64,000 bases of DNA from a virus (IMGVR_UViG_3300035696_000018:32001-96000), one strand, 5' to 3'; counted from the first letter of the stretch, positions 21,351 to 44,460 are shown. Program-made: numbers and translations. The notes: a model not told the origin generated them from the sequence alone.

Positions 21351-22526
21351 ATGATAAAGCACATCAATCACCAGAATGTCTCGACGACGCCGTTCGTTGC
21401 GGCTAAGTCTCGTGCTTTATCTAACATTCAGAATGCGGATACTGTAATTCTCGAACCATCTGGCTATCCAGATGGAACCAATGTATCGCTCGACTACATT
21501 GATTACAATTCGGGAGACCCCATCATCAACCGAGAGTGCGACATTGCTCTTGAGCAGCAAGACCTCGACTCACTTGGTTATGAAGAGGGCATCACTGGTT
21601 CTGCGAAGTTCAATCCCGACACGGACCCCCAAAACACTGATGGAACGTACAAAAGCCTCGTCCATCGAACGATTAAGAATGCTTTCTACAACGATTACCG
21701 GAACCCCACGGAAATCTTCGGTATTGAGCATATTGACTTCCCATTAAGTAAAACTCTCCGAAACCTTTCCGACAAGTTCAGGATGTTCAGCATTCCTCAA
21801 CTTGTGTTTGGCGACAAAATCAAGCCCCAAAGCGTACAGTTTTACGATAACCTCCTTGATGACAATGTTGTCATTACGGATGATGGGTATCAAAATCTAG
21901 TCGCTGGCACCAACCTCTTCTCGAAGGTCCAAGAGGTCAGATTTTATCCATCGGGAGGAAACTATGTCATCACGGGGTCGGTCACTTCAAGTTACATTTG
22001 CCCGACGTACACGGATACCAAATCGGTCTCGGATGGGGATGCTGGCTATATGTTTGTCGGATTTTGCAGTGGAAGCATATTCGATACCACTGTCTTTGTT
22101 TTTCAATCTCAATCTGTACAAGCAAACATTGCATTCCAATATGGAAGCCTTGCTAATGGAGTAGCAAAGACCGAGTATCCGGTAATGAATCTGTCATTTT
22201 TGAGTGGTTCATTGCTTAATGCCATCGTTTCTTCGTCGTACCCACCAGAGTCAGCTTCATTTAGTATGGGATTCTTGAGCGGTTCTATCTTCGATACCCT
22301 TATTTATATCAATGGAGGTAGTGATACCGGGTCAATGGCGAGCATTGGATTCTTGAGCGGGTCCATTTTTGACACTTTGATTGCCGTTTCTGGAAGCAAC
22401 GAAACCTCGTCTTTCGTAATGACTTTCTTAAGCGGTTCAGTATTTACTGGACTGGTAATAGCCCCGTCTCAATACGAAAGCAGCGGGACGCTACAAATCG
22501 GATTTAACAGCGGTTACATTACGTAA
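21351..22526 (+). CDS. virion structural protein with C-terminal FLSGSIFDT repeats
   Basis: N-terminal ~195 aa paralogous to 23932..24648; about seven xxGFLSGSIFDT-like repeats. Confidence 0.6.
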   Translation: MIKHINHQNVSTTPFVAAKSRALSNIQNADTVILEPSGYPDGTNVSLDYIDYNSGDPIINRECDIALEQQDLDSLGYEEGITGSAKFNPDTDPQNTDGTYKSLVHRTIKNAFYNDYRNPTEIFGIEHIDFPLSKTLRNLSDKFRMFSIPQLVFGDKIKPQSVQFYDNLLDDNVVITDDGYQNLVAGTNLFSKVQEVRFYPSGGNYVITGSVTSSYICPTYTDTKSVSDGDAGYMFVGFCSGSIFDTTVFVFQSQSVQANIAFQYGSLANGVAKTEYPVMNLSFLSGSLLNAIVSSSYPPESASFSMGFLSGSIFDTLIYINGGSDTGSMASIGFLSGSIFDTLIAVSGSNETSSFVMTFLSGSVFTGLVIAPSQYESSGTLQIGFNSGYIT

Positions 22527-23931: not shown

Positions 23932-24648
23932 ATGATTAAGCAACTCAAAAAGACGGACGTAATGGTTTCGCCTTTCCGTGCCAACAAGGCACGGGAGTTG
24001 TTTAATGTACAGAACTCGTCGTGCCCCATTCTTGAAGAGTTATCTTCGAGCGTAGAGATTCCCGACACCCAAATCGCTCTCGACTACATTGACTACATCA
24101 CGGGGGAGCCATTGCTCAACCGTGATTGCAATATCGCCCTTGAGCAACAGGACGAAGACATAGCCGTTTACGAGGAAGGAGTGAGCGGCAGCTTGAAACC
24201 GTATAACCCCTCTGTGGATTCCTTCAACATCACTGGCACGTCAAAATTGCTTCTCTACAATCAGATGCGGCAGGCTTTTTATAACGGTTATCAAAACCCG
24301 ACCGAACTGTTTGGAATGGAGAATATTGACCTTCAACTGTCGAAAACGAATCGTTTTTTGGCAGATGATTTCCGAATGTTTACGATTCCCCGTCTCACGA
24401 TGGGAGACCGAATTCAGCCAGGAAGTGTCCAGTTTCAGGATACGGCGTTCGATGACAATGTTCGGATTCAAGATGATTCCAACGGCAACCTGATTGCGGG
24501 GGATTACCTATTCTCGAAGATTCAAGAGGTCCGACTTATTGGAAATCAAATCTTGCAAGGTTCGGCTTCTTACAGTTGTTCTGTCTATTATGAGGGGCCA
24601 CCAATGTTCATACCTAAAATCACTGCAAGCTATACGCTTCCCCCATAA
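23932..24648 (+). CDS. virion structural protein, paralog of the 21351 N-terminal domain
   Basis: LDYIDY..G.P..NR.C.IALEQQD, FRMF.IP....GD.I.P.SVQF.D and FSK.QEVR are shared with 21351. Confidence 0.6.
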   Translation: MIKQLKKTDVMVSPFRANKARELFNVQNSSCPILEELSSSVEIPDTQIALDYIDYITGEPLLNRDCNIALEQQDEDIAVYEEGVSGSLKPYNPSVDSFNITGTSKLLLYNQMRQAFYNGYQNPTELFGMENIDLQLSKTNRFLADDFRMFTIPRLTMGDRIQPGSVQFQDTAFDDNVRIQDDSNGNLIAGDYLFSKIQEVRLIGNQILQGSASYSCSVYYEGPPMFIPKITASYTLPP

Positions 24649-33774: not shown

Positions 33775-33988
33775 CCGATGCGGTCAAGAAGTCGAGGGCG
33801 TGCTCGACCAGTGTAAGTCCACAGGAGTTATTGTCACAGGTGGTTACTACATCGTAGCCGAGGGGAATTGGCAAGAGTTTCAACGGGATGATGAGGAATA
33901 CGTTTGCGATGATTGTATGCACTCCGACCCCAAATACATTGCCATCTACGGCGACTTGAAAGCCAAGCGGGTTGACTCTCCAAAGTGA
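33749..33988 (+). CDS. small zinc-ribbon protein
   Basis: CDRC...CDDC. Confidence 0.55.
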   Translation: MKTIRITCDRCGQEVEGVLDQCKSTGVIVTGGYYIVAEGNWQEFQRDDEEYVCDDCMHSDPKYIAIYGDLKAKRVDSPK

Positions 33989-34365
33989 AACCAGGGTTTC
34001 TATACATTGTTACGAACGAAGCCTTCCCTGGATGGGTAAAAGTGGGAACCACTTGGAATCTCGTTGACCGTCTCCACACTTACCAAACAGGAGACCCCTT
34101 CCGCCGTTATCGCCTCGTTTATTGGCTTCAACACCCAGAGTTCCGTCAAGCCGAGAAGAAAATCAAAGAGGTCATGAAGCATTTCGCCTTGTCCATCAAG
34201 GGGGAATGGTATGAAATTGACCTTGACATGGCTAAAAGCCGCCTTGACGAGCAGCTTGAGGATTACAACAGTTTCATGCCTCCGTTAAAAAAAGTTGAGT
34301 TTGACCCCGATTTAAGTTATGCTATCGGGGATGATGGTACAATCCGAACTGGTAGCAATCTTTAA
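33985..34365 (+). CDS. T5orf172-type GIY-YIG protein
   Basis: GFLYI..WVKVG.T..RL..YQTG.P..EWY. Confidence 0.75.
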   Translation: MKPGFLYIVTNEAFPGWVKVGTTWNLVDRLHTYQTGDPFRRYRLVYWLQHPEFRQAEKKIKEVMKHFALSIKGEWYEIDLDMAKSRLDEQLEDYNSFMPPLKKVEFDPDLSYAIGDDGTIRTGSNL

Positions 34366-35284
34366 CGAGTTGCTTGGGCAGCAAGCCCGTCTCCGCAAGG
34401 GAGGCATTCAGGCCACGTACCATTGCCCGTTTTGTGCGGACAAGAATCTTGTAACTCATAAGTTGGAACTCGCCTTGGGAGGTCCACGTATTGGCTCATA
34501 TCACTGTTGGCGATGCGACACGAAAGGAGCTACGTTTGGGAGTTTGTTAAAGAAACTCCAAGCCCCGCAAGGTTACAGAGAAGCGATTTTCAAACTGACT
34601 GGTGACATTCGACTCGCCCGATACCAAAAGTCTTCCGACCAATCCTACCTCAGCTTGCCATCGGAGTTCCACCCGATGCACAAGCCCAAGAGCACCCCAG
34701 AATATAAGAATGCATTGGCATACTTAAAAAAACGTGGAATCACCCGTGAGGACATACTTAGGTACAATATCGGGTACTGCGAAGGCGGCGAGTACGACCA
34801 GCACGTTATCGTACCATCATACGATGCGAAGGGTGCTCTCAACTTTTTCATTGGCCGACGTTACTACGTTGATGACCCAGGAATACCACACAAAAAGCCC
34901 GATGTCTCAATGGATATTGTCGGATTTGAAAGTTTTGTCAACTACCATGAACCGCTTAATCTCTGTGAGGGCGTCTTTGACGCAATGGCAATTCGCAACA
35001 ATGCCATCCCTCTGTTTGGCAAATATCCATCACCAACTCTCAGAGCCAACATGAACCTGTTCCACGTTCGGCGTGTTAACGTCGTTCTGGATTGGGATGC
35101 CGAAGCAGATTCAATAAAGATGTACAAACGATTGCGTAGAGAAGTTCCATCCGTCGAGATTCATATCGTGAAACTTGATGGCAAAGACCCCTCCAAGCTA
35201 GGGTTCATCCATACGCATACACTCATTCGAAATTCCCCCGAGTTTGACGAAAGCGACCTTTTGAGATACGAATTGCAACTATGA
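34331..35284 (+). CDS. DNA primase (Zn finger + TOPRIM)
   Basis: CPFC..HCWRC; YLKKRGI; CEGVFDAM; LDWD; KDP. Confidence 0.8.
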   Translation: MMVQSELVAIFNELLGQQARLRKGGIQATYHCPFCADKNLVTHKLELALGGPRIGSYHCWRCDTKGATFGSLLKKLQAPQGYREAIFKLTGDIRLARYQKSSDQSYLSLPSEFHPMHKPKSTPEYKNALAYLKKRGITREDILRYNIGYCEGGEYDQHVIVPSYDAKGALNFFIGRRYYVDDPGIPHKKPDVSMDIVGFESFVNYHEPLNLCEGVFDAMAIRNNAIPLFGKYPSPTLRANMNLFHVRRVNVVLDWDAEADSIKMYKRLRREVPSVEIHIVKLDGKDPSKLGFIHTHTLIRNSPEFDESDLLRYELQL

Positions 35285-38200
35285 TAAACATCATCAAAAC
35301 CAAGATTGAGAAGTTCACTCACGTTCTGCAAATTGCAGACATCCACATTCGACTGACGAAGCGGCACGACGAGTTCAAGGAAGTTTTTGCCAACCTGTAC
35401 GAAGAAATCAAGAAGACCCCCGAGACTACGGCAGTCGTCCTTGTCGGAGACGTATTCCACTCCAAGAGTGACTTGACGCCCGAGTGCGTTCAAATGGCCT
35501 CCGACCTATTCAGCGGAATCGCTGCCATTCGTCCGTTAGTCCTCGTTGCTGGAAACCACGATGCCACACTGTCGAACAAGAGTCGTCTGGACAGTCTAAC
35601 TCCCATTGTGGATGCTATCAACAACCCCAATATTCACTATCTCAAGACCACGGGTCTTTATGGGATGGCGAATATCTTGTTCAACAACATGGGGGTGTTT
35701 GATGCCCCCGAACATTACATTCGTGGGGACACCATCCCAGAAATCTATCGTAACCAATACGAACACATAATTGCTCTATTCCACGGGGCAGTTGACCGTG
35801 CGGCATTGGATACGGGGTATTCGATTAGCAACCCCGCCATCATGAATCCGTTGTTCGATTACAATGACATGGCGATGCTTGGGGACATTCACAAGCGTCA
35901 AGACATGCAGGACTACGATGAAATGACTCATAAGCCTTGCATTCACTATGTCGGTTCGATGATTCAACAGAACCACGGCGAGGATTTGGATGGGCATGGC
36001 TACTCTCTGTGGGACTTGAAAACACGCAAGTATGAGTTCCACGAGTTGAAGAATGACTTCGGGTACTTCACCATTGATATTCAGAAAGGGCAACTCACAA
36101 CCGATTTGGCGAAGCTTCCCAAGAAGGTGCGTCTCCGCATGAAGTGCTACGAGAGCATTGCCTCGGAAGTCAAAAAGGTCTTGGCGGAAATCAAGATGAA
36201 GACGCAAGTCGTCGAGACTGCTTATGTCCGAATGGACCAAGAGCGGGACAAAAAGGACATCATTCCTCTCTGCAAAGACATTGTTCTGTCTGACTTGACG
36301 AGCATTGACTATCAAGAAAAGTTGCTGATTGAGTTTCTGACCAAGAAACTTGACATCACAGACCAGACGAAGATTGATTCCATTCTCAAGATTAACAAGG
36401 CGACGAACCAACTCATTAAGCGAGACGAGTTTGCTCGCAATTTGAGATGGAAGCCCATCCGATTTGAGTGGGACAATATGTTCACGTATGGTGAAGGCAA
36501 TGTCATTGACTTCTCCAATATGGCGGGAGTTTATGGCATCTTCGGGCCGAATAGGTGTGGTAAGTCGAGCATCTTATCCGCTCTTATCTTCTGCTTATTC
36601 GACAAGTTCGACCGTGGGTATAAGGGGCTTCATGTTCTCAATGTTCAGAAATCCACTTTCCGATGCAAACTCGAATTTGAGATTTCGGGCGTTCGATATT
36701 TCATCGAACGCAACGGGAACACGACTCGTTCAGGCAACGTCAAAGTGGACGTGAGGTTCTGGAAGGTCGTCAATGGGGTTGAGGAAGACCTTCAAGGTTC
36801 GGCACGACGAGATACCAATGACATCATTCGTGACTATATTGGTTCGTATGAAGACTTCATCATCACGGCTGCATCATTCCAGAGTGCCAAGAACCTCAGC
36901 AACTTCATTGACATGGGAAATAGTGAGCGTAAGGACTTGCTCGTGCAGTTCATTGGCCTGAACGTCTTTGACCGTTTGGATGAATCTGGTCGTGAGCGTA
37001 GCCGAGAGTTGGCTGCGGTTCTCAAGACGCACAAGGATAAGAACTATCAACTCGAAATCGAGCAAAACAAGAATGCGTTGGCACACGCCGAATCCATGTT
37101 TGCTTCCGCCAATGACCAAGCGGAAAGTTTGAAGTCTCAAATCGTAGCGGTCAACGAGCAAATCATCGCCGAGAGTGCGAATCTTATCAAGCTAGACACC
37201 AGCGTCCCCACGGACTTGCAGACGTTGCAGACCCGAAGGGAAACCGCCGAGAAGACCATCGAAGCCAAGCACAAGACCATAACGGAAACCCGTGAAGCAA
37301 ACGCCGCTCGGGAAAAGAAACTGGCCGAGATTGAGGAAGAAATCGTCAAGTTGGAGAAGCAAGACCTTGTGGAATCTCACAAAAAGTATAAGGAAATCTC
37401 CGACAAGATTTCCGCCATGAAGCAGAAGATTGAACTCAAAAAAGTAGAAGTCAAAGGAAAGATTGAGAAGGTGGACCGACTCAAAACCCATAAATTCGAC
37501 CCCAACTGCCGATTCTGTGTTGAGAACCAGTTTGTCAAGGACGCCTACAAAGCCAAGGATGAACTCGTTGCGGACAAGAAAGAGACCGATGGTCTGATGG
37601 CGGGTCTTATTGACCTTCGTAAAGACCTTGACGTTTACAAGTGGGTCGAGACCGCTTATGAAAAATACACCAAGCTTCTGACTGACCGTGGAAATCTCCG
37701 AGAGGAATGCCAGAAAGGCAGCAAGCAAATCATCATCATTACCAACGAACTTGAACGTTTGGATTCCGCCTTTAAGGATGTCGTGTCGAAAATTGACATC
37801 TACCACCGCAACGAAGTGGCCGTAGAGAACAATGCCAAAGTTCAATCGAAAATCAATGCGTTCAAGGTTGCTCTTGGGAAATTGGACGTTGCTCTCCAGA
37901 AGCAAAATCAAGTGCTTATGGACATTTCTGGAAAGAAAGAACTGTTCCGCAGCACCGTAGAGACGGTCACAAAGACTCTCAACGAAGTCACGGCGATGGA
38001 AGACGAGTTGGATTCCTATACACAATACCTTGCCGCCGTGGGACGTGATGGTATCCCTTATCAAGTCATCTGCAACACCGTTCCCGAGATTGAAAAGGAA
38101 GTCAATTCCATCCTCAGCCAAGTGGTGGACTACACCATCCAATTCGAGACCGATGGCAAGAACGTTGTGCCCTATGTGGCATATGAGCATGGCCGATGGC

Positions 38201-38487
38201 CGATTGAATTGACCTCTGGGTTTGAGCGATTCGTGGCAAGCGTAGCCATTCGAGTGGCTTTGACAAACATTTCCAATCTCCCGAAGTGTAGTTTTCTTGC
38301 AATTGATGAAGGTTGGGCGACGTTGGACGCCGAAAATCTGGCATCTATGTCAACCCTATTCTCGGCGTTGAAAAACAATTACGACTTCGTGCTCGTCATA
38401 AGTCATATTGACAGCATCAAGGATATGGTGGATAAGACTATAGAAATCACTCATGATGGGGCGATTGCAAAAGTGGTGTTTGAGTAA
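35281..38487 (+). CDS. fused Mre11/SbcD nuclease - Rad50/SbcC ATPase (gp47-gp46-like)
   Basis: ADIH, GDVFH, GNHD, LGDIH nuclease motifs; Walker A GPNRCGKS; Zn hook CRFC; SGFE signature; Walker B AIDEG; H-loop ISH. Confidence 0.9.
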   Translation: MINIIKTKIEKFTHVLQIADIHIRLTKRHDEFKEVFANLYEEIKKTPETTAVVLVGDVFHSKSDLTPECVQMASDLFSGIAAIRPLVLVAGNHDATLSNKSRLDSLTPIVDAINNPNIHYLKTTGLYGMANILFNNMGVFDAPEHYIRGDTIPEIYRNQYEHIIALFHGAVDRAALDTGYSISNPAIMNPLFDYNDMAMLGDIHKRQDMQDYDEMTHKPCIHYVGSMIQQNHGEDLDGHGYSLWDLKTRKYEFHELKNDFGYFTIDIQKGQLTTDLAKLPKKVRLRMKCYESIASEVKKVLAEIKMKTQVVETAYVRMDQERDKKDIIPLCKDIVLSDLTSIDYQEKLLIEFLTKKLDITDQTKIDSILKINKATNQLIKRDEFARNLRWKPIRFEWDNMFTYGEGNVIDFSNMAGVYGIFGPNRCGKSSILSALIFCLFDKFDRGYKGLHVLNVQKSTFRCKLEFEISGVRYFIERNGNTTRSGNVKVDVRFWKVVNGVEEDLQGSARRDTNDIIRDYIGSYEDFIITAASFQSAKNLSNFIDMGNSERKDLLVQFIGLNVFDRLDESGRERSRELAAVLKTHKDKNYQLEIEQNKNALAHAESMFASANDQAESLKSQIVAVNEQIIAESANLIKLDTSVPTDLQTLQTRRETAEKTIEAKHKTITETREANAAREKKLAEIEEEIVKLEKQDLVESHKKYKEISDKISAMKQKIELKKVEVKGKIEKVDRLKTHKFDPNCRFCVENQFVKDAYKAKDELVADKKETDGLMAGLIDLRKDLDVYKWVETAYEKYTKLLTDRGNLREECQKGSKQIIIITNELERLDSAFKDVVSKIDIYHRNEVAVENNAKVQSKINAFKVALGKLDVALQKQNQVLMDISGKKELFRSTVETVTKTLNEVTAMEDELDSYTQYLAAVGRDGIPYQVICNTVPEIEKEVNSILSQVVDYTIQFETDGKNVVPYVAYEHGRWPIELTSGFERFVASVAIRVALTNISNLPKCSFLAIDEGWATLDAENLASMSTLFSALKNNYDFVLVISHIDSIKDMVDKTIEITHDGAIAKVVFE

Positions 38488-38537
38488 AATATTCTCACTT
38501 TTATGTTATTACATCTATATTTATAGGAGGACCACTT

Positions 38538-38696
38538 ATGGGTCGAAAACGAAAATACTTTACCGAGGAAGAAATAGATGAATGCAACCGAGCAAAAGCC
38601 AGACGTTATTACGAGCGGCACAGGAAAGAAATCCTGCGGAAACGAATGCGAAAGTACTGGGAGTCGGTGGACAAAGGAGTGTCCAAGATGCCATAG
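38538..38696 (+). CDS. small basic protein (52 aa) overlapping the homing endonuclease in another frame
   Basis: TATTTATA + GGAGG + ATG; MGRKRKYFTEEEIDECNRAKARRYYERHRKEILRK... Confidence 0.5.
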   Translation: MGRKRKYFTEEEIDECNRAKARRYYERHRKEILRKRMRKYWESVDKGVSKMP

Positions 38697-39450
38697 GATA
38701 CAGACATATTCCAACAAATGGAAACTCCAACGTGCCGTCGAATCCAATACTAAATGCTTCAAGTGTTGCAACGCCATAGTTCTCGACCAAGAGTTTTATT
38801 ATAGGAATTGTCCTCAATGTGGTCGTCAGATAAAACTCAAAGACAAATTTCGATTTTACGAGGGGCAACGGAAAAACTTGAAGTGCCCAAGATGCCGTCA
38901 TCTTGGGATAAAAATGCCAGAGTCAGCGAAGAAAAGACTTTCCGAGTTGGCATTACAGCGTGGTGGACATCCGCACACCGATGCCCATAAAACGAAAATT
39001 CGTGGTAGTGGAAACCCCATGTATGGGGTCCATAGATATGACAATCTCAATCCCTTCTATGGCAAGCGACACAACGAAGACGCCCGCCGACGAATGCGTG
39101 TCGCAGCGTGCTTGCGAGTTATCGCACTACAGCGGAGCAACAACGGGAGGGTCAACAATGTCGGGAAGCGAGAGGGTGCCTATTTCTCGCAGTTGGAGCA
39201 GGAAATGGGCTGGAACGGAGTGTACTTCGCCAAATGCGGCAGTCAGCACTTCGTTGACCACGTAGGATATTTCGTTGACTACTACGAGCCGTACTACAAC
39301 ATCGTGGTGGAATACGACGAACCACGACATTACAAGAATGGTATGCTTAAAGAGCGAGATATTCGGAGGATGGAGCAAATCCACGAGCATATGGACTGCC
39401 AGTTTTTTCGGTACAATGCCTACGGGAAAGAGTTAACCAGATTTTTTTAA
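38578..39450 (+). CDS. homing endonuclease (CxxC ribbons, NUMOD3, PD-(D/E)xK-like), paralog of 1985..2896; start uncertain
   Basis: NPFYGKRHNEDARRRM; FVDYYE..IVVEYDEPRH..DIRR. Confidence 0.75.
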   Translation: MNATEQKPDVITSGTGKKSCGNECESTGSRWTKECPRCHRIQTYSNKWKLQRAVESNTKCFKCCNAIVLDQEFYYRNCPQCGRQIKLKDKFRFYEGQRKNLKCPRCRHLGIKMPESAKKRLSELALQRGGHPHTDAHKTKIRGSGNPMYGVHRYDNLNPFYGKRHNEDARRRMRVAACLRVIALQRSNNGRVNNVGKREGAYFSQLEQEMGWNGVYFAKCGSQHFVDHVGYFVDYYEPYYNIVVEYDEPRHYKNGMLKERDIRRMEQIHEHMDCQFFRYNAYGKELTRFF

Positions 39451-39457
39451 TGGGGAC

Positions 39458-39486
39458 TTGACACGGAGCGGGGTGCGTGGTAATAT
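39458..39486 (+). promoter_or_regulatory. sigma70 promoter, probably leaderless
   Basis: TTGACA-17 bp-TAATAT, with ATG 6 nt downstream. Confidence 0.7.
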
Positions 39487-39492
39487 GCCATC

Positions 39493-39993
39493 ATGAAAAA
39501 GACCAAATTCTGTAATCGTTGTGGGCTGGAAAAGCCCGAAACTCATTTTAGCCCCAACCGTCACTGCTTATCGGGCGTTACCAGACGTGCCTATTGCATG
39601 GACTGCGAATCAAAAAAGATTCCTGTCAACAAATCCCAACTCACGTTGTTTGAAGTGACATTTCCGAGACCAGACTACGGAGAGTTGTTTTCGTGCCCGC
39701 TTTGCCTTCTTGCCCGACCCAAACGCAATCCCACGGACGTTTGCCTTGACCATAGCCCTCTTAACGGAAACGTTCGGGGATGGTTGTGCAATACCTGCAA
39801 CACCAATAACGGAAAGTGGTCGCAGGACCAAATGATTCGGGCGATTGCCTATGGGATTCTCCACGAGAAGAAGAACTCGCCGTGGACCGCCGAAGGGTGT
39901 AACCAGTTGGGAAACCTCAATCGCCTTTCATCATTACTTTCCGATTCTATTAACACTGCCGTAACATCATACCTCAATCCTACTCCTGCCTAA
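39493..39993 (+). CDS. endonuclease VII-like nuclease
   Basis: CPLC..VCLDHS..G.VRGWLCNTCN..NG. Confidence 0.75.
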   Translation: MKKTKFCNRCGLEKPETHFSPNRHCLSGVTRRAYCMDCESKKIPVNKSQLTLFEVTFPRPDYGELFSCPLCLLARPKRNPTDVCLDHSPLNGNVRGWLCNTCNTNNGKWSQDQMIRAIAYGILHEKKNSPWTAEGCNQLGNLNRLSSLLSDSINTAVTSYLNPTPA

Positions 39994-39994
39994 T

Positions 39995-40957
39995 ATGGCA
40001 ACCAAACTCAAACTGAATACGGTTTATAACGAGGACTGTTTGCAGACAATGGACCGCATGGAGGATGACTCCGTGGATTTGACGGTCACATCCCCGCCGT
40101 ATGATGATAGACGGTCATACGATGCCTTAATCAAGGGATTGAAACCAGAGTTTAATGGGTATTCGTTTCCGTTTGAGAAAATTGCGAAAGAACTCTATCG
40201 GGTCACAAAACCCGGTGGAGTTGTTGTGTGGATTGTCGCCGACGCCACGGTTGGAGGGAGCGAGACAGGGAATTCGTTTCGTCAGGCTCTATTCTTCAAG
40301 GAATGTGGATTCTGTCTTCACGATACGATGGTATATCAGAAGCCTCCCCGAGGGGCACAAGGAAATAACCACGGGTATTGGCAGGTGTGGGAGTATATGT
40401 TTGTCCTCAGTAAAGGACGCCCGAAGACTATTAACCTAATTAAAGACCGAAAGAATCGGGAGGCAAGAATGGGTGATAACGGGACAAAACGATTGCGTAA
40501 TGGAGAATTGCAGAAGACAAAACGAGGCGGATATGACGAGTTTGGTCGGAGGACCAACGTATGGTATTACATAACTGGGAAGGGGCATTCGGCAAGCGAT
40601 GATATAGCATCCAAACACCCAGCACCATTTCCCGAGAAATTGGCACAGGACCACATTCTGTCATGGTCCAATGAAGGAGATTTGGTTTATGACCCGTTTA
40701 TGGGAGGGGGCACAACAGCAAAGATGTGCATTCTGACGGGTAGAAAATGGGTGGGAAGCGAACTGATGGAAAAATTCTACAAGGTTTCCCAAGAGCGAGT
40801 AGCAGAAGGTTTGAAGGTTGCTAAAGCGAATGAAGCCAACAAAAAGAAATTGGCGGTGATTGAGCATAGTAACGAGGAAAATGGATTTGCTGATATGGGA
40901 GACGAGCGTCCCGTGGATGACGACGAAACGTGGGATATAGCCGCAATGGCAAAGTAA
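39995..40957 (+). CDS. N4-cytosine/N6-adenine DNA methyltransferase (beta class)
   Basis: VTSPPY catalytic motif precedes HPAPFP and DPFMGGGTT. Confidence 0.9.
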   Translation: MATKLKLNTVYNEDCLQTMDRMEDDSVDLTVTSPPYDDRRSYDALIKGLKPEFNGYSFPFEKIAKELYRVTKPGGVVVWIVADATVGGSETGNSFRQALFFKECGFCLHDTMVYQKPPRGAQGNNHGYWQVWEYMFVLSKGRPKTINLIKDRKNREARMGDNGTKRLRNGELQKTKRGGYDEFGRRTNVWYYITGKGHSASDDIASKHPAPFPEKLAQDHILSWSNEGDLVYDPFMGGGTTAKMCILTGRKWVGSELMEKFYKVSQERVAEGLKVAKANEANKKKLAVIEHSNEENGFADMGDERPVDDDETWDIAAMAK

Positions 40958-40966
40958 CTTCAATCT

Positions 40967-40992
40967 GGCGGGACTTCGGTCCCGCCTTTTTT
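40967..40992 (+). terminator. Rho-independent terminator with UUCG tetraloop
   Basis: GGCGGGAC-TTCG-GTCCCGCC-TTTTTT. Confidence 0.9.
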
Positions 40993-40998
40993 CTGTAC

Positions 40999-41088
40999 AT
41001 CTCACATCTTGACGTACTCAAGGACGCCGTGGATAAGACCATTGAAATCAAGAAGGAAGGCAACTTCTCGTTCGTAAACTACGAATAA
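40999..41088 (+). pseudogene. orphaned original 3' end of the Rad50/SbcC gene
   Basis: ISHLDVLKDAVDKTIEIKKEGNFSFVNYE* vs ISHIDSIKDMVDKTIEITHDGAIAKVVFE*: 16/29 identical, same length, no start codon. Confidence 0.8.
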
Positions 41089-41123
41089 GGCTATATGTAT
41101 AGGGGAGGCGTCGAGCCTCCCTT

Positions 41124-43766
41124 ATGGCAAAGCAATTACTCTCAAGTTTCGGTAAAAAAGGAGACAGCAGCTACACCACGACTGGTGTATCCCAAGGGCT
41201 TGACCAGATTCAAGTGGATATTGAGGATACTGCTCACCTTTCTCGCTATTTCCAAGTCGTTGAGTTTGACCCCGCATTCACAGCGGGTAAGAATTGTATA
41301 TCATTCAACGGCTCCAGCTTTCTTCAAGACGGTTCCGAAATCAAAGTCGAAGTTCTCGACAATGACGGAAACTCCCTCTATCTTGCTTCCCCTCCCCGTG
41401 GAACCAACTACGTGGACATCGCCAACTTCACTGTGGCGATTTATGTCTATCAGGAGACCGTCAGCGGTGCTGGAAAAGTCATCCTCGTAGGCACCACGAC
41501 AAAAGGTGAAGTTGTCCGATGGACAGGCAACATCAGCATCAATACCACGTACCAAAACGTCTCCCGTGTGCGTTTTTACCACGCCCCGTACATGGAAGTT
41601 CAGCCTTTGCTTTACCCCGTCATTGAGAATCTCACTGGTTCTACATTGACGCAAGATGTTACGATGTCGGGGTCTTTCTACTTACGAGTTGACAATGCGA
41701 ATGGATTTTACACTCCAGGCAGTGCCAACTACGGATACACGCTTCCTTTCAACGCCCGAATAGTTCTGTGGTCTGCACAACCAGGAAATCCAACCGTTCT
41801 GGTGGATTCATTCACTGCCGACATGATTGGGCAACCAATCATACTTCACTATGATTATGCTAGTGCCGTGGTTCCAGGCAGTCCTCCCGTTTACCGATAT
41901 ACTCACGCCGATGTAACAGCCAACATAACATCGGTCAACAGTACTACGGAGATTGTTGTAGATTCAATACCAGTAGGACCGCTGGCCATGCTATCTTCTT
42001 CGGGACAGTTTACTTGTAGTTTTGCCGAGACGGATTACATTCAACAAGCCGTTACTCAACCGATGTATGCTCCCCTCGTCAACAAAACATTGACCAACCC
42101 AGGATTCATGGAAGTAACAGTCTCGACAAATACGTTTACTTCCTCGCTTGTTGGCCAGCAAGTAACATTGACCTATGGGTCAATCTATTTGCTCGGGGCC
42201 AATCTTCCTCCATTCAATCCTGCCGTTATTTCGAGCCGAAACCAACATCCCGTCACGGCAAGTACATTTACAGTTCGAGCGGTCACAGGAAGTCAAGTCA
42301 TTCATACCGACCCGTTTACTTACACAATATACCACGGCAGCGGGTTTTCTACGGTTGCCACGAGTTATACGGCATCCAGAGTTACAGGAAGCATAACGGT
42401 CCTGAGTGCGTCCAATCCATACCAAGGATATGTTAACGCCGCAGGGTCAGCTTCTTTGATGAAGAAGTCCTATGTGGACATCATTTACCGAAATATTGAT
42501 ACCTTTACGGGATATGTTGCCCGCCATAAGCTGTACGCCAAAAGCAACATTTACCCTGGCAACTTCACGCTGATTGATGATACTGTTCTCGGACCAAGTG
42601 AACTGCTAGTGGACCCGATTACAGTCAACAAGAACTTCTCGACGATTGGAACATTTATCAACCAAGACTTCATCAATCAGTATTGGTTTGCGTCTTCGGC
42701 GTCTCTCAACTTGATTTATACGGATAAACCCACGCTGCGTTCGATGATTATCCACCCCACGACTGGATACTCAGGGTCGGATGGAAATTCCTATGTCATT
42801 GTCAAGGCTCAAGCCATTGGAACTGCCAATGATGCCAATTACTATCCTTATGACGAGGCGGCATTTGACCAGTTCTCTGGAACTGGGTACACGTCCAACT
42901 TCATTTTCCTACAAGAGGGAACTCTCTACAGGCTACAAGCCAGTATGAGTATCAACAAGAATCTAACTGATACGGCCACGGTCATGTTTTTCTTTACGAG
43001 TTCCATCCCGAGTATATCAAACGAAACGTCTTACAATCCGCAGTTTGGGTGGAAGCTTGGCGAGATTGTTGTTGGCGATAAAGTGACTAGCAGAATATTC
43101 CCGTCCCCTCAACAACTCTTCTTCACTCCATTGAATGACTACTATGGGACGCTTGTCATCGTTCCTATAGGGTGTGAAGTCATAATCTCTGCCGTTTCGT
43201 TACAGAACTACGGGGATTATGGATTCTCTCCGCAATCAGCCGTAGTTCAGATTCCATTCCCCGTCAACATCGCTAACGAAAAGTGGACGCTCAAGGCCGA
43301 ACTTTTCGACAGCAACTACAATTTGGTCTATACACTGTCACCAGTGGTGCAATCTTTCGACCCATCGGGGGCGAGCCTTTATGGTAACAGCATCATTGGG
43401 ACTGGCACGAGCACGGGCGGGAATAGCACGGTAAACTCGTTGACCATAACCAACAACCTCTACTTACCAAACATCGGGGAGGCTTTAACGCCGCACCGAT
43501 TGTTGGGGTATAACATCCCAACCCATAATCCTCCGCTCTCTGGCGAAGGCTCCCTTGGATATACAGATGTCTCCGACCTGTCTCTAATCCCCACCAACAA
43601 CAACGGAGTGGTTACATCCAAGGACTACATTAACGTCAATACGGTTGAAAGCGGAACCCCATTTTCTGGCCGTTCCATCGCCGTCAGATATAGTGGAAGT
43701 GCCCCAAATCCCTATGGCAGGAGGGTTTATGTGGATACAACGGGCACAAAATACACGTATTCTTAA
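41124..43766 (+). CDS. virion structural protein
   Basis: S/T/G- and beta-rich 880-aa protein; late motif upstream. Confidence 0.55.
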   Translation: MAKQLLSSFGKKGDSSYTTTGVSQGLDQIQVDIEDTAHLSRYFQVVEFDPAFTAGKNCISFNGSSFLQDGSEIKVEVLDNDGNSLYLASPPRGTNYVDIANFTVAIYVYQETVSGAGKVILVGTTTKGEVVRWTGNISINTTYQNVSRVRFYHAPYMEVQPLLYPVIENLTGSTLTQDVTMSGSFYLRVDNANGFYTPGSANYGYTLPFNARIVLWSAQPGNPTVLVDSFTADMIGQPIILHYDYASAVVPGSPPVYRYTHADVTANITSVNSTTEIVVDSIPVGPLAMLSSSGQFTCSFAETDYIQQAVTQPMYAPLVNKTLTNPGFMEVTVSTNTFTSSLVGQQVTLTYGSIYLLGANLPPFNPAVISSRNQHPVTASTFTVRAVTGSQVIHTDPFTYTIYHGSGFSTVATSYTASRVTGSITVLSASNPYQGYVNAAGSASLMKKSYVDIIYRNIDTFTGYVARHKLYAKSNIYPGNFTLIDDTVLGPSELLVDPITVNKNFSTIGTFINQDFINQYWFASSASLNLIYTDKPTLRSMIIHPTTGYSGSDGNSYVIVKAQAIGTANDANYYPYDEAAFDQFSGTGYTSNFIFLQEGTLYRLQASMSINKNLTDTATVMFFFTSSIPSISNETSYNPQFGWKLGEIVVGDKVTSRIFPSPQQLFFTPLNDYYGTLVIVPIGCEVIISAVSLQNYGDYGFSPQSAVVQIPFPVNIANEKWTLKAELFDSNYNLVYTLSPVVQSFDPSGASLYGNSIIGTGTSTGGNSTVNSLTITNNLYLPNIGEALTPHRLLGYNIPTHNPPLSGEGSLGYTDVSDLSLIPTNNNGVVTSKDYINVNTVESGTPFSGRSIAVRYSGSAPNPYGRRVYVDTTGTKYTYS

Positions 43767-43797: not shown

Positions 43798-44460
43798 GTG
43801 AACGAATGGTCAAAAACAGGAGTCTATCTTATAAAAAATGTCATAAATGGACATTGCTATGTAGGAAGTACTTCTTCTCGGTGGGGAATAAATCACAGGG
43901 TAAGTAATCATATAAGTGATTTGAAAAAAGGAATACATCATTCTCAAATACTCCAACGAGCGTGGAATAAGTATGGAGAAAGCAGTTTTTCCACAGAAAT
44001 TTTGGAAGAGTGTTCACCAGAAGATTGTCTTGAGCGAGAACAACACTATCTTGATACTTTAAGACCATACTACAATATCCACAAAGTTGCAGGAAGTCCC
44101 CGAGGAAGAGTTGTATCCGAGGAAACGAAATCAAAAATATCGGCTGCGTTGACGGGGAGAAAACTTTCTCCAGACCATAAGAAAAAAATCTCTGAGTCTT
44201 TGAGAGGGAAGCCCTTAACAAAAGAACATATAGAGAAAGTTAACGCATCGTTGATAGGGAAGCGTAAAACTGGAAGGGAAAATGGAAGATTTACCGGGTG
44301 TTTCGTGTTTGAAAATACAGAAACCTTGGAAAAGTTCATAGGAGGGAAATTTGAACTGGCGAAAACCTATGGATTGGATTTATCGGGCATATCAAAAATA
44401 TGCCTTGGAAAAAGAAAATCCTATAGAAAATGGATTTGTTTAGGAAAGGACCAAATATGA
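43798..44460 (+). CDS. GIY-YIG homing endonuclease with NUMOD3 repeats
   Basis: GVYLIKN..CYVGS..R..H..LQRAWNKYG..REQHYLD..YN; SEETKSKIS. Confidence 0.9.
   Translation: MNEWSKTGVYLIKNVINGHCYVGSTSSRWGINHRVSNHISDLKKGIHHSQILQRAWNKYGESSFSTEILEECSPEDCLEREQHYLDTLRPYYNIHKVAGSPRGRVVSEETKSKISAALTGRKLSPDHKKKISESLRGKPLTKEHIEKVNASLIGKRKTGRENGRFTGCFVFENTETLEKFIGGKFELAKTYGLDLSGISKICLGKRKSYRKWICLGKDQI

Follow-up and report, generated by a model that had tools for sequence, protein, structure and literature searches.

A probable homing-endonuclease element in a viral Mre11–Rad50 gene that supplies a new gene end and strands the old one downstream

In fungal mitochondria, the elements termed mORFs were first described in atp6 of Allomyces macrogynus and later in atp6, atp9, cox2 and nad3 of Glomus, with an ‘inserted C-terminal’ distinguished from a ‘native C*-terminal’ (PMC3630166), and C-terminal duplications are also present in cob and atp6 of Endoconidiophora (PMC6279837). 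In yeast, WHO elements are reported to home into the essential, conserved aldolase gene FBA1, where each integration replaces the 3' end without splicing and cleavage is allele-specific (PMC7282813). In the EDxHD nucleases, NUMOD motifs lie N-terminal to a Vsr-like domain, and I-Bth0305I resides in a group I intron of a phage recA gene (PMC3239194). In addition, ‘fractured genes’ combine Vsr-like nucleases with split inteins, and an SbcD-like (Mre11-type) gene is split without an intein (PMC2677866), while the free-standing SegF, SegG and MobE of T4 carry out intron-less homing (PMC2988022, PMC2790892). Here we analyze a 64,000-nucleotide (nt) stretch of viral DNA (IMGVR_UViG_3300035696_000018:32001-96000; referred to as the window, with positions counted from its first letter), in which 2.6 kb inside the Mre11–Rad50 fusion gene (38398-40998) probably constitute a homing-endonuclease element whose point of entry was the codon preceding the H-loop motif I-S-H.

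The window belongs to an IMG/VR virus record of 106.8 kb, which is probably that of a jumbo phage given a completeness of ~30% as estimated by CheckV. Its Mre11–Rad50 fusion gene (35281-38487, 1068 amino acids (aa)) ends in a 29-codon in-use tail (38398-38487), and a second, start-less version of this gene end, the orphan (40999-41088), begins 2 nt past the T-run of an intrinsic terminator. The two tails have the same length, are both stop-ended and share 16 of 29 residues, as a first-pass annotation of the sequence had noted and as re-reading and a self-comparison confirmed; in DNA, 52 of 90 bases are identical by hand count, with a longest identical run of 11 nt. When the whole record was compared with itself in six frames, this pair (43 bits) was the sole short duplication of a gene end on the same strand, and no further one was detected there, including beside a nuclease paralogue (1985-2896) and a GIY-YIG gene (43798-44460). 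A search of upstream against downstream DNA around the nuclease gene returned the pair at E = 1.5e-7. The only start codon upstream of the orphan is a GTG at 40930, which lies inside the methyltransferase gene with the terminator intervening.

Codon usage and nucleotide identity separate the two tails. The in-use tail has a GC fraction at third codon positions (GC3) of 0.45 and a C fraction (C3) of 0.14, and ranks at the 0.1 percentile for core-gene codon preference among 29-codon windows of the primase, Rad50 and 880-aa genes, being the least typical such stretch of these neighboring core genes, whereas the orphan (GC3 0.66, C3 0.45) ranks at the 44th percentile of the same windows; the codon contrast claimed in the first-pass annotation is thus real. 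Comparison was made with related loci on IMG/VR or metagenome contigs, which are denoted by L-numbers. The in-use tail is 50% identical in nt to L002/L003, the lowest value of 27 gene blocks (60-87% for the others), and is closest to L009 (74%). By comparison, the orphan matches the functional tails of L002/L003 at 76 of 90 nt (84%) and 26 of 29 aa, and relatives' functional Rad50 tails are found with it at E ~5e-14 (26/29 aa). These identities, 50% against 84% to the relatives together with 74% to L009, show the in-use tail to be imported and the orphan to be the resident original. The DNA homology of the orphan to empty alleles extends from the ATC of I-S-H through the stop codon into the intergenic region. 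Between the two tails, 13 of 29 residues differ and synonymous change is confined to the I-S-H codons; the new tail, which the first-pass annotation took to be recoded, represents a diverged allele and not a synonymous recoding.

The replaced segment in the window starts at a histidine motif. Profile alignments place the histidine of the tail's I-S-H opposite those of ITH in M. jannaschii Rad50 and ISH in E. coli SbcC, ~30 residues after Walker B and the D-loop, a position that is the H-loop of ABC-ATPases and that the first-pass annotation had named as such.

Empty alleles provide the expected counterpart of the occupied gene. Rad50 protein queries, including a metagenome scan that drew on low-complexity peptide patterns and returned only six loci, yielded 23 related loci, and a profile of 42 aligned nuclease-family sequences yielded 80, at each of which the upstream and downstream DNA of the nuclease gene were compared. 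The first-pass annotation had predicted that relatives lacking the cassette would end Rad50 in the orphan sequence, followed directly by a homologue of the gene at 41124, and at least nine of them do so: in L002, L003, L004, L006, L007, L012, L016, L023 and L025, Rad50 ends orphan-type (..IKREGNFS..) and the 880-aa gene starts 40-55 bp past it. Altogether, the 880-aa gene lies within ~40-70 bp of Rad50 in 12 cassette-free loci, and the intergenic sequence behind the orphan of the window is the one that the empty alleles have at this place. The cassette-free tails are nearly uniform (..LDALKDAVDKQ..), and the nucleotide conservation of the empty alleles contains no sharply conserved block as a candidate recognition site. 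The parts of the locus are as follows.

35281-38397, + strand: native body of the Mre11–Rad50 fusion gene (Pfam Metallophos and AAA_23/SMC_N)
38398-38487, + strand: in-use, imported Rad50 tail, 29 codons and stop, with the H-loop I-S-H and the last strands (nt identity, codon usage, H-loop alignment)
38488-38537, + strand: left-hand spacer of the cassette, containing motif TATATTTATAGG (38516-38527) and, ahead of the small open reading frame (ORF), a Shine-Dalgarno sequence; conserved in the L001, L015, L022 and L026 cassettes
38538-38696, + strand: small basic ORF, 52 aa, which overlaps the 5' part of the nuclease gene but is read in a different frame (homologues likewise placed in ~20 loci)
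38578-39450, + strand: free-standing homing-endonuclease-like gene, 290 aa, with zinc ribbons, NUMOD3 and a C-terminal Vsr/EDxHD-like PD-(D/E)xK domain (Pfam, homologues, model)
39458-39486, + strand: sigma-70-like promoter ahead of the cargo, TTGACA, 17 nt, TAATAT, extended -10 TG (10/12 consensus matches; a consensus match only)
39493-39993, + strand: cargo gene 1, endonuclease VII-like, 166 aa (Pfam PF02945, E = 9.5e-9; PHROG 2633)
39995-40957, + strand: cargo gene 2, N6/N4 DNA methyltransferase, 320 aa (Pfam PF01555, E = 1.9e-38)
40967-40996, + strand: strong intrinsic terminator closing the cassette, 8-bp stem (40967-40986) with 7 G-C pairs, UUCG loop, T6 tail
40999-41088, + strand: stranded native Rad50 tail (orphan), 29 codons and stop, without a start codon or ribosome-binding site (RBS) (match to relatives' tails)
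41089-41123, + strand: native intergenic region that comprises motif TATATGTATAGG (41092-41103), a hairpin and the 880-aa gene's RBS (conserved immediately past the Rad50 stop in every empty allele)
41124-43766, + strand: 880-aa gene, native downstream neighbour of Rad50 (adjoining it in 12 cassette-free loci)

The spacer motif TATATTTATAGG is one mismatch away from the motif before the 880-aa gene. A reading of TATATGTATAGG as a general promoter was dropped, as only 9 loose matches occur in 64 kb. The 880-aa gene is without a match in Pfam and PHROG.

The arrangement resembles that of the fungal mORFs in that an endonuclease gene lies in the 3' part of a conserved gene, a foreign C-terminal piece completes the frame, and the native C-terminus is stranded downstream, where it is closer to the native ends of relatives than the inserted one. 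It differs from them in its host, a jumbo phage instead of an organelle, and in its nuclease, which is EDxHD/Vsr-like and not of the LAGLIDADG or GIY-YIG type. Furthermore, the nuclease gene is out of phase with Rad50, being separated from it by the stop codon (38485-38487) and a 50-nt spacer and having its own RBS and an overlapping small ORF, and the element carries a promoter-to-terminator cargo pair of endonuclease VII and methyltransferase. With the WHO elements, as reported, the locus shares the replacement of a conserved gene's 3' end without protein or RNA splicing; unlike here, those elements occupy a nuclear eukaryotic genome and use intein-like (HO-related) nucleases.

The EDxHD nucleases share with the nuclease of the window NUMOD motifs N-terminal to the nuclease domain, a phage-borne location and targets in repair or replication, and probably also a Vsr-like fold with its conserved acidic and histidine residues. 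However, the published ones spare the target gene by means of an intron, split-intein halves or a gene split, whereas here a gene end is replaced, and the likeness to the solved members is at the level of the fold only, with no sequence similarity detectable by hidden Markov models. In contrast to fractured genes, Rad50 is complete upstream, and the orphan, preceded by a terminator and lacking both a start codon and an RBS, is not a second translated ORF. The intron-less homing of T4 is similar in having a free-standing nuclease gene between conserved genes, presumed cleavage of the neighbour and co-conversion of the flank, here the Rad50 tail. In the T4 cases, we know of no duplicated, stranded gene end, and to our knowledge the nuclease gene lies outside coding sequence. 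A full-text literature search found no published phage description of such a gene-end replacement, and no mention of it is made in a study of ICP1 that deals with nucleases where genetic exchange has its boundaries.

Duplicated gene ends recur in relatives. In L029, a ~28-codon orphan starts at S-H directly on the nuclease stop codon; by reading, it agrees with the functional tail of L010 at all of its final 20 residues. L030 contains a 15-codon orphan (z = 8.9), and in L022 a Dam-like methyltransferase gene and an ORF of 388 aa are followed by a 13-codon, L010-type orphan; the in-use tail of L022 changes type at the same codon where its orphan starts. The claim that insertion takes place at the H-loop codons thus stands for the window and L029, but not for L030 (codon -15) and L022 (codon -13). 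An orphan (ITKENGFS..) is also present in L046/L054, in which Rad50 is only 34-38% identical to that of the window, and decayed orphan remnants precede the 880-aa gene in L001 and L005/L013, with stops and deletions in L001 and L005. Together with the foreign tail, this recurrence with different cargo supports the splicing-free, cargo-carrying gene-end replacement that the first-pass annotation had proposed.

A second target is seen in L084/L101, where an SNF2 helicase gene is followed by a small ORF and a related nuclease gene. A copy of the last helicase codons (NLDLLNDGD..) is fused in frame to the C-terminus of the nuclease; here it is the orphan, and not the host gene, that is fused. The same SNF2-type helicase gene (L084:3229-6861, L101:4501-6849), whose last ~11 codons are duplicated behind the nuclease, also contains an intein with Hint and LAGLIDADG domains, and one gene thus harbors two different selfish elements.

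Phylogenetic analysis points to movement of the nuclease between genomes. In a Rad50 body tree, from which the tail was excluded, the window and L001 are sisters (100/100), and nuclease presence is scattered, with ~7 changes. In the nuclease tree, the nucleases from the Rad50 site, eight in number, all group in a single clade (99/98), within which the window and L001 are not sisters, and the approximately unbiased test rejects placing these two together (p = 0.03). The two nucleases are 49% identical, compared to 83% for the Rad50 bodies (identity of the window's body is 83-84% to L001 and 77% to L002/L003). The nuclease branching therefore conflicts with the Rad50 tree and indicates horizontal movement. 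Moreover, tail type follows the nuclease and not the body: the tail is diverged in the window, L001, L033, L015, L026 and L029, and mixed in L022 and L030. These tail and tree patterns are what would be expected as the trace of a site-specific nuclease converting susceptible alleles to resistant ones.

The product of 38578-39450 has a sole Pfam match, NUMOD3 (PF07460, E = 1.8e-8, residues 158-174), which lies N-terminal to the nuclease domain and is also found in most homologues. Among 93 homologues in metagenomes, one is named ‘very-short-patch-repair endonuclease’ by its source, and the closest are P0004 (73%) and P0001 (60%). An alignment of 42 homologues shows no variation at two CxxC pairs, D234, E245, D247, E248 and H251, and hardly any at D261; of these, D234, E245, D247, H251 and D261 agree with the E, D, H, D pattern of EDxHD by sequence position only. 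Residues 190-290 of an AlphaFold model have a predicted local distance difference test score >90, and VIA-align gives Z values of 7.4 for I-Bth0305I (3r3p), 7.1 for Vsr (1cw0) and 7.5 for a DUF559-like protein (3hrl), with Hjc and tRNA-splicing endonucleases equally high. Foldseek with the whole model gave E values of 0.2 or worse, the protein has no Pfam Vsr match, and PHROGs contain nothing for the nuclease or the small ORF of the window; the L015 nuclease shares the C-terminal motif and matches PHROG homing-endonuclease families. The fold of the modelled nuclease domain is clearly PD-(D/E)xK-like, and the protein is likely a member of the EDxHD family.

The small basic ORF, for which Pfam has no match, overlaps the 5' end of this family's nuclease genes in ~20 loci (e.g., L001:11376-11531, L015:2164-2310, L022:5847-6041) and encodes ~50 aa with a core ..RRYYERH... 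In the three loci checked (the window, L001 and L015), the nuclease frame is +1 relative to it. As none of the 93 nuclease homologues carries it in frame, a fused nuclease N-terminus was rejected; it could be a regulator or a DNA-binding partner, or it could supply the first portion of a protein made by frameshifting.

The cargo at the Rad50/880-aa-gene junction nearly always comprises DNA methyltransferases, one to three per locus: one each in the window, L022 (D12 class; L022:6651-7715) and L015 (L015:3175-4101), two in L026 (L026:9220-11725) and three in L005/L013 (L005:11204-14102), which have an orphan remnant and no nuclease gene. L005, L013 and L026 have homologues of the window methyltransferase (47% identity) at this very junction, and the endonuclease VII-like protein has weak matches to phage genes annotated as endonuclease VII. 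L031 carries an FkbM-type methyltransferase (L031:6638-7291), and L034 an EcoRI-like endonuclease with a D12 methyltransferase (L034:1892-3936), possibly a complete restriction-modification pair riding with the nuclease. In the window and L022, the cargo lies between imported tail and orphan and would therefore move with the unit.

We propose that an imported 29-codon tail was joined in frame to the resident Rad50 body, so that the Rad50 protein stays whole without splicing; this tail is followed by the spacer with its promoter-like motif, the small ORF, the nuclease gene, the separately promoted cargo and the terminator. The resident 29 codons were, in this account, pushed downstream and lie, presumably untranslated, between the terminator and the promoter region of the 880-aa gene. 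The nuclease may cut orphan-type (empty) alleles near the junction, a cut site that we infer only from junction positions, and the diverged in-use tail would escape cutting. The whole unit would then be copied from an occupied genome during repair, for which the Rad50 body would offer homology on the left and the orphan with the 880-aa-gene region on the right, such that imported tail, nuclease module and cargo would be copied together. The first orphan would have arisen by a non-homologous join and would afterwards be propagated as break-proximal homology; after fixation it may decay or be deleted, as in L001, L005 and L033. A more ambitious proposal, in which tail, nuclease, cargo and orphan form one homing unit that keeps the orphan as its break-proximal right homology arm and through which an EDxHD nuclease lineage specialized on the Rad50 H-loop region spreads methyltransferase or restriction-modification cargo among distant jumbo phages, is possible and is advanced here tentatively.

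Several observations weigh against the homing-endonuclease element as proposed. The in-use-type tail is present in L009 and L017 although neither has the cassette, a pattern that the first-pass annotation had named as contrary to its reading, whereas at least nine other cassette-free relatives are orphan-type; the in-use type therefore also exists, or survives, without the element. In L009, however, the tail is itself a recombinant module, because its Rad50 body is sister to that of L023, which has an orphan-type tail (99/99). The history is further blurred by the middle of the window's orphan (41035-41052, ..DKTIEI..), which differs from the ..DKQIE.. of all empty alleles and is like the in-use/L009 tail (ACC ATT GAA AT is identical to L009), which makes the orphan itself a small mosaic and suggests gene conversion between tail copies. 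For the nuclease, the structural similarity of its domain is middling (Z ~7), and single-sequence and 42-sequence profile searches of PDB sequences returned zinc-ribbon noise only, with no match to a solved Vsr or EDxHD protein. In addition, L033, L015 and L026 have a nuclease cassette and a diverged tail without an orphan, retaining only the ATATGTAT motif and the hairpin, and junctions vary between loci (codons -29, -28, -15 and -13).

The last two of these points also suit an ordinary intron-less homing event of the T4 Seg/Mob kind, in which an intergenic nuclease cuts the Rad50 3' end, the tail is co-converted, and the orphan is an unneeded and unpropagated by-product of occasional end joining or microhomology repair at the right-hand break end. 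Loci with a nuclease and no orphan indicate that the nuclease gene can equally well occupy the space between two genes in the usual way, with a duplication perhaps resulting from a part of the repair events only; orphan lengths of 29, 28, 15 and 13 codons look like separate break or resection points, and the varying junctions indicate either several founding events or later deletions. The spacer past the in-use stop moreover resembles the native intergenic start of L009, which fits intergenic insertion in an L009-like genome. However, five or more lineages have an orphan at this site and another gene is affected as well, which is too frequent for rare accidents unless the orphans are inherited via homing, and the orphan abutting the nuclease stop in L029 and the fused one in L084/L101 place the nuclease gene truly inside its target. 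Orphan-less loci are equally explained by decay, for which L001 and L005 are intermediates, and the orphan appears to have been lost over time. On balance, we regard this account as improbable, although it may hold for some of the loci.

Far less credible is a reading that gives the nuclease no role and takes the Rad50/880-aa-gene junction as a recombination hot spot for morons and the duplication as a neutral scar. The variable cargo at the junction (one to three methyltransferases, an EcoRI-like enzyme, unknown ORFs) and the nuclease-free L005/L013 loci would suit it, but one nuclease clade is tied to the site across Rad50 identities from 84% to ~35%, tail type correlates with nuclease presence, the same nuclease family accompanies the same duplication at another gene, and L005 fits nuclease loss after invasion. 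Least plausible of all, despite its intact frame and an nt identity to L002/L003 tails (84%) that equals or exceeds the conservation of functional flanks, is an orphan kept for a function, as promoter or leader of the 880-aa gene or as an expressed small peptide (ORF 40930-41088): the arrangement downstream is the same in L033, L015 and L026 with motif and hairpin only, and the orphan is therefore dispensable for the downstream gene, the L001 and L005 orphans have stops and deletions, and the sole upstream start is cut off by the terminator.

The layout of the window is not an assembly artefact, since contigs from two public peat-metagenome runs, one of which may be the source sample, bridge both junctions with 0 differences (38262-38550, 40393-41093, 40972-41305). 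The virus record occurs at low depth in peat metagenomes, and in contigs of three peat runs (coverage 2-5x) no joint skipping the cassette was found; no empty allele is therefore seen in these samples. An exact 30-mer of the orphan has no second match in IMG/VR, and megablast with the cassette region gave zero matches to GenBank phages; the nearest isolate at the protein level is Microcystis phage Mel-JY01 (Rad50 identity 36%).

At the right junction, the L015 cassette is closed by a similar terminator (L015:4940-4977 against window 40967-41002), followed by CTGTACA in both and preceded by different cargo, and in several relatives GTACAT stands just ahead of the 880-aa gene; the leader of that gene is a possible origin of the cassette's right end. 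Microhomology at this junction (T-run/CTGTAC against TTTGTGCTTGTT) was too weak to call.

Other nuclease-related genes were also observed. In L017, Mre11–Rad50 is split into two ORFs of 240 and 862 aa (L017:8001-12194) without an intein by a free-standing gene for a 289-aa Vsr/DUF559-like nuclease (L017:8774-9643), located in the Mre11 part at about residue 215; short extra peptides are present at both new ends, and the arrangement resembles the intein-less SbcD-like fractured gene (PMC2677866). In the window, a distant nuclease paralogue (1985-2896, 303 aa, 24% identity) has NUMOD3 repeats, keeps the ..EYDEP.H.. motif, and lies between a 585-aa gene and a membrane-protein gene with no duplicated gene end detected around it. 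A GIY-YIG/NUMOD3 homing-endonuclease-like gene (43798-44460; GC 0.38 against 0.47 for the window) directly follows the 880-aa gene, with homologues at the same position in L012 and L023. A T5orf172/MUG113-domain gene upstream of the primase gene (33985-34365) has the same position in the 16 relatives that extend that far, and so behaves as a core gene and not as a mobile nuclease. Separately, two neighboring genes at 21351-21608 and 23932-24198 share a diverged N-terminal likeness (61% over 44 aa, 46% over 35 aa) and are probably paralogous structural or fibre genes.

Selfish nucleases in essential genes must spare their host; those described from phages do so by means of introns, inteins or split inteins, by splitting the gene or by lying beside it. 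A spare gene end represents a further solution, and gene-end replacement is so far on record from fungal mitochondria and yeast. Across the relatives, one target site is seen empty, freshly occupied, with a decayed orphan or in an end state that has no orphan at all, so that the life cycle and the cut-site specificity are directly testable. The finding explains why the 3' end of this Rad50 gene is mosaic and at odds with the gene body, with consequences for phage phylogenies and gene callers, and points to a nuclease-linked spread of methyltransferase cargo. If tail, nuclease, cargo and orphan do act as one homing unit, phages would have a third route into essential genes for selfish nucleases, one that needs no splicing, in addition to introns and split inteins, and the replacement of gene ends would generally drive 3'-end mosaicism in phage core genes.

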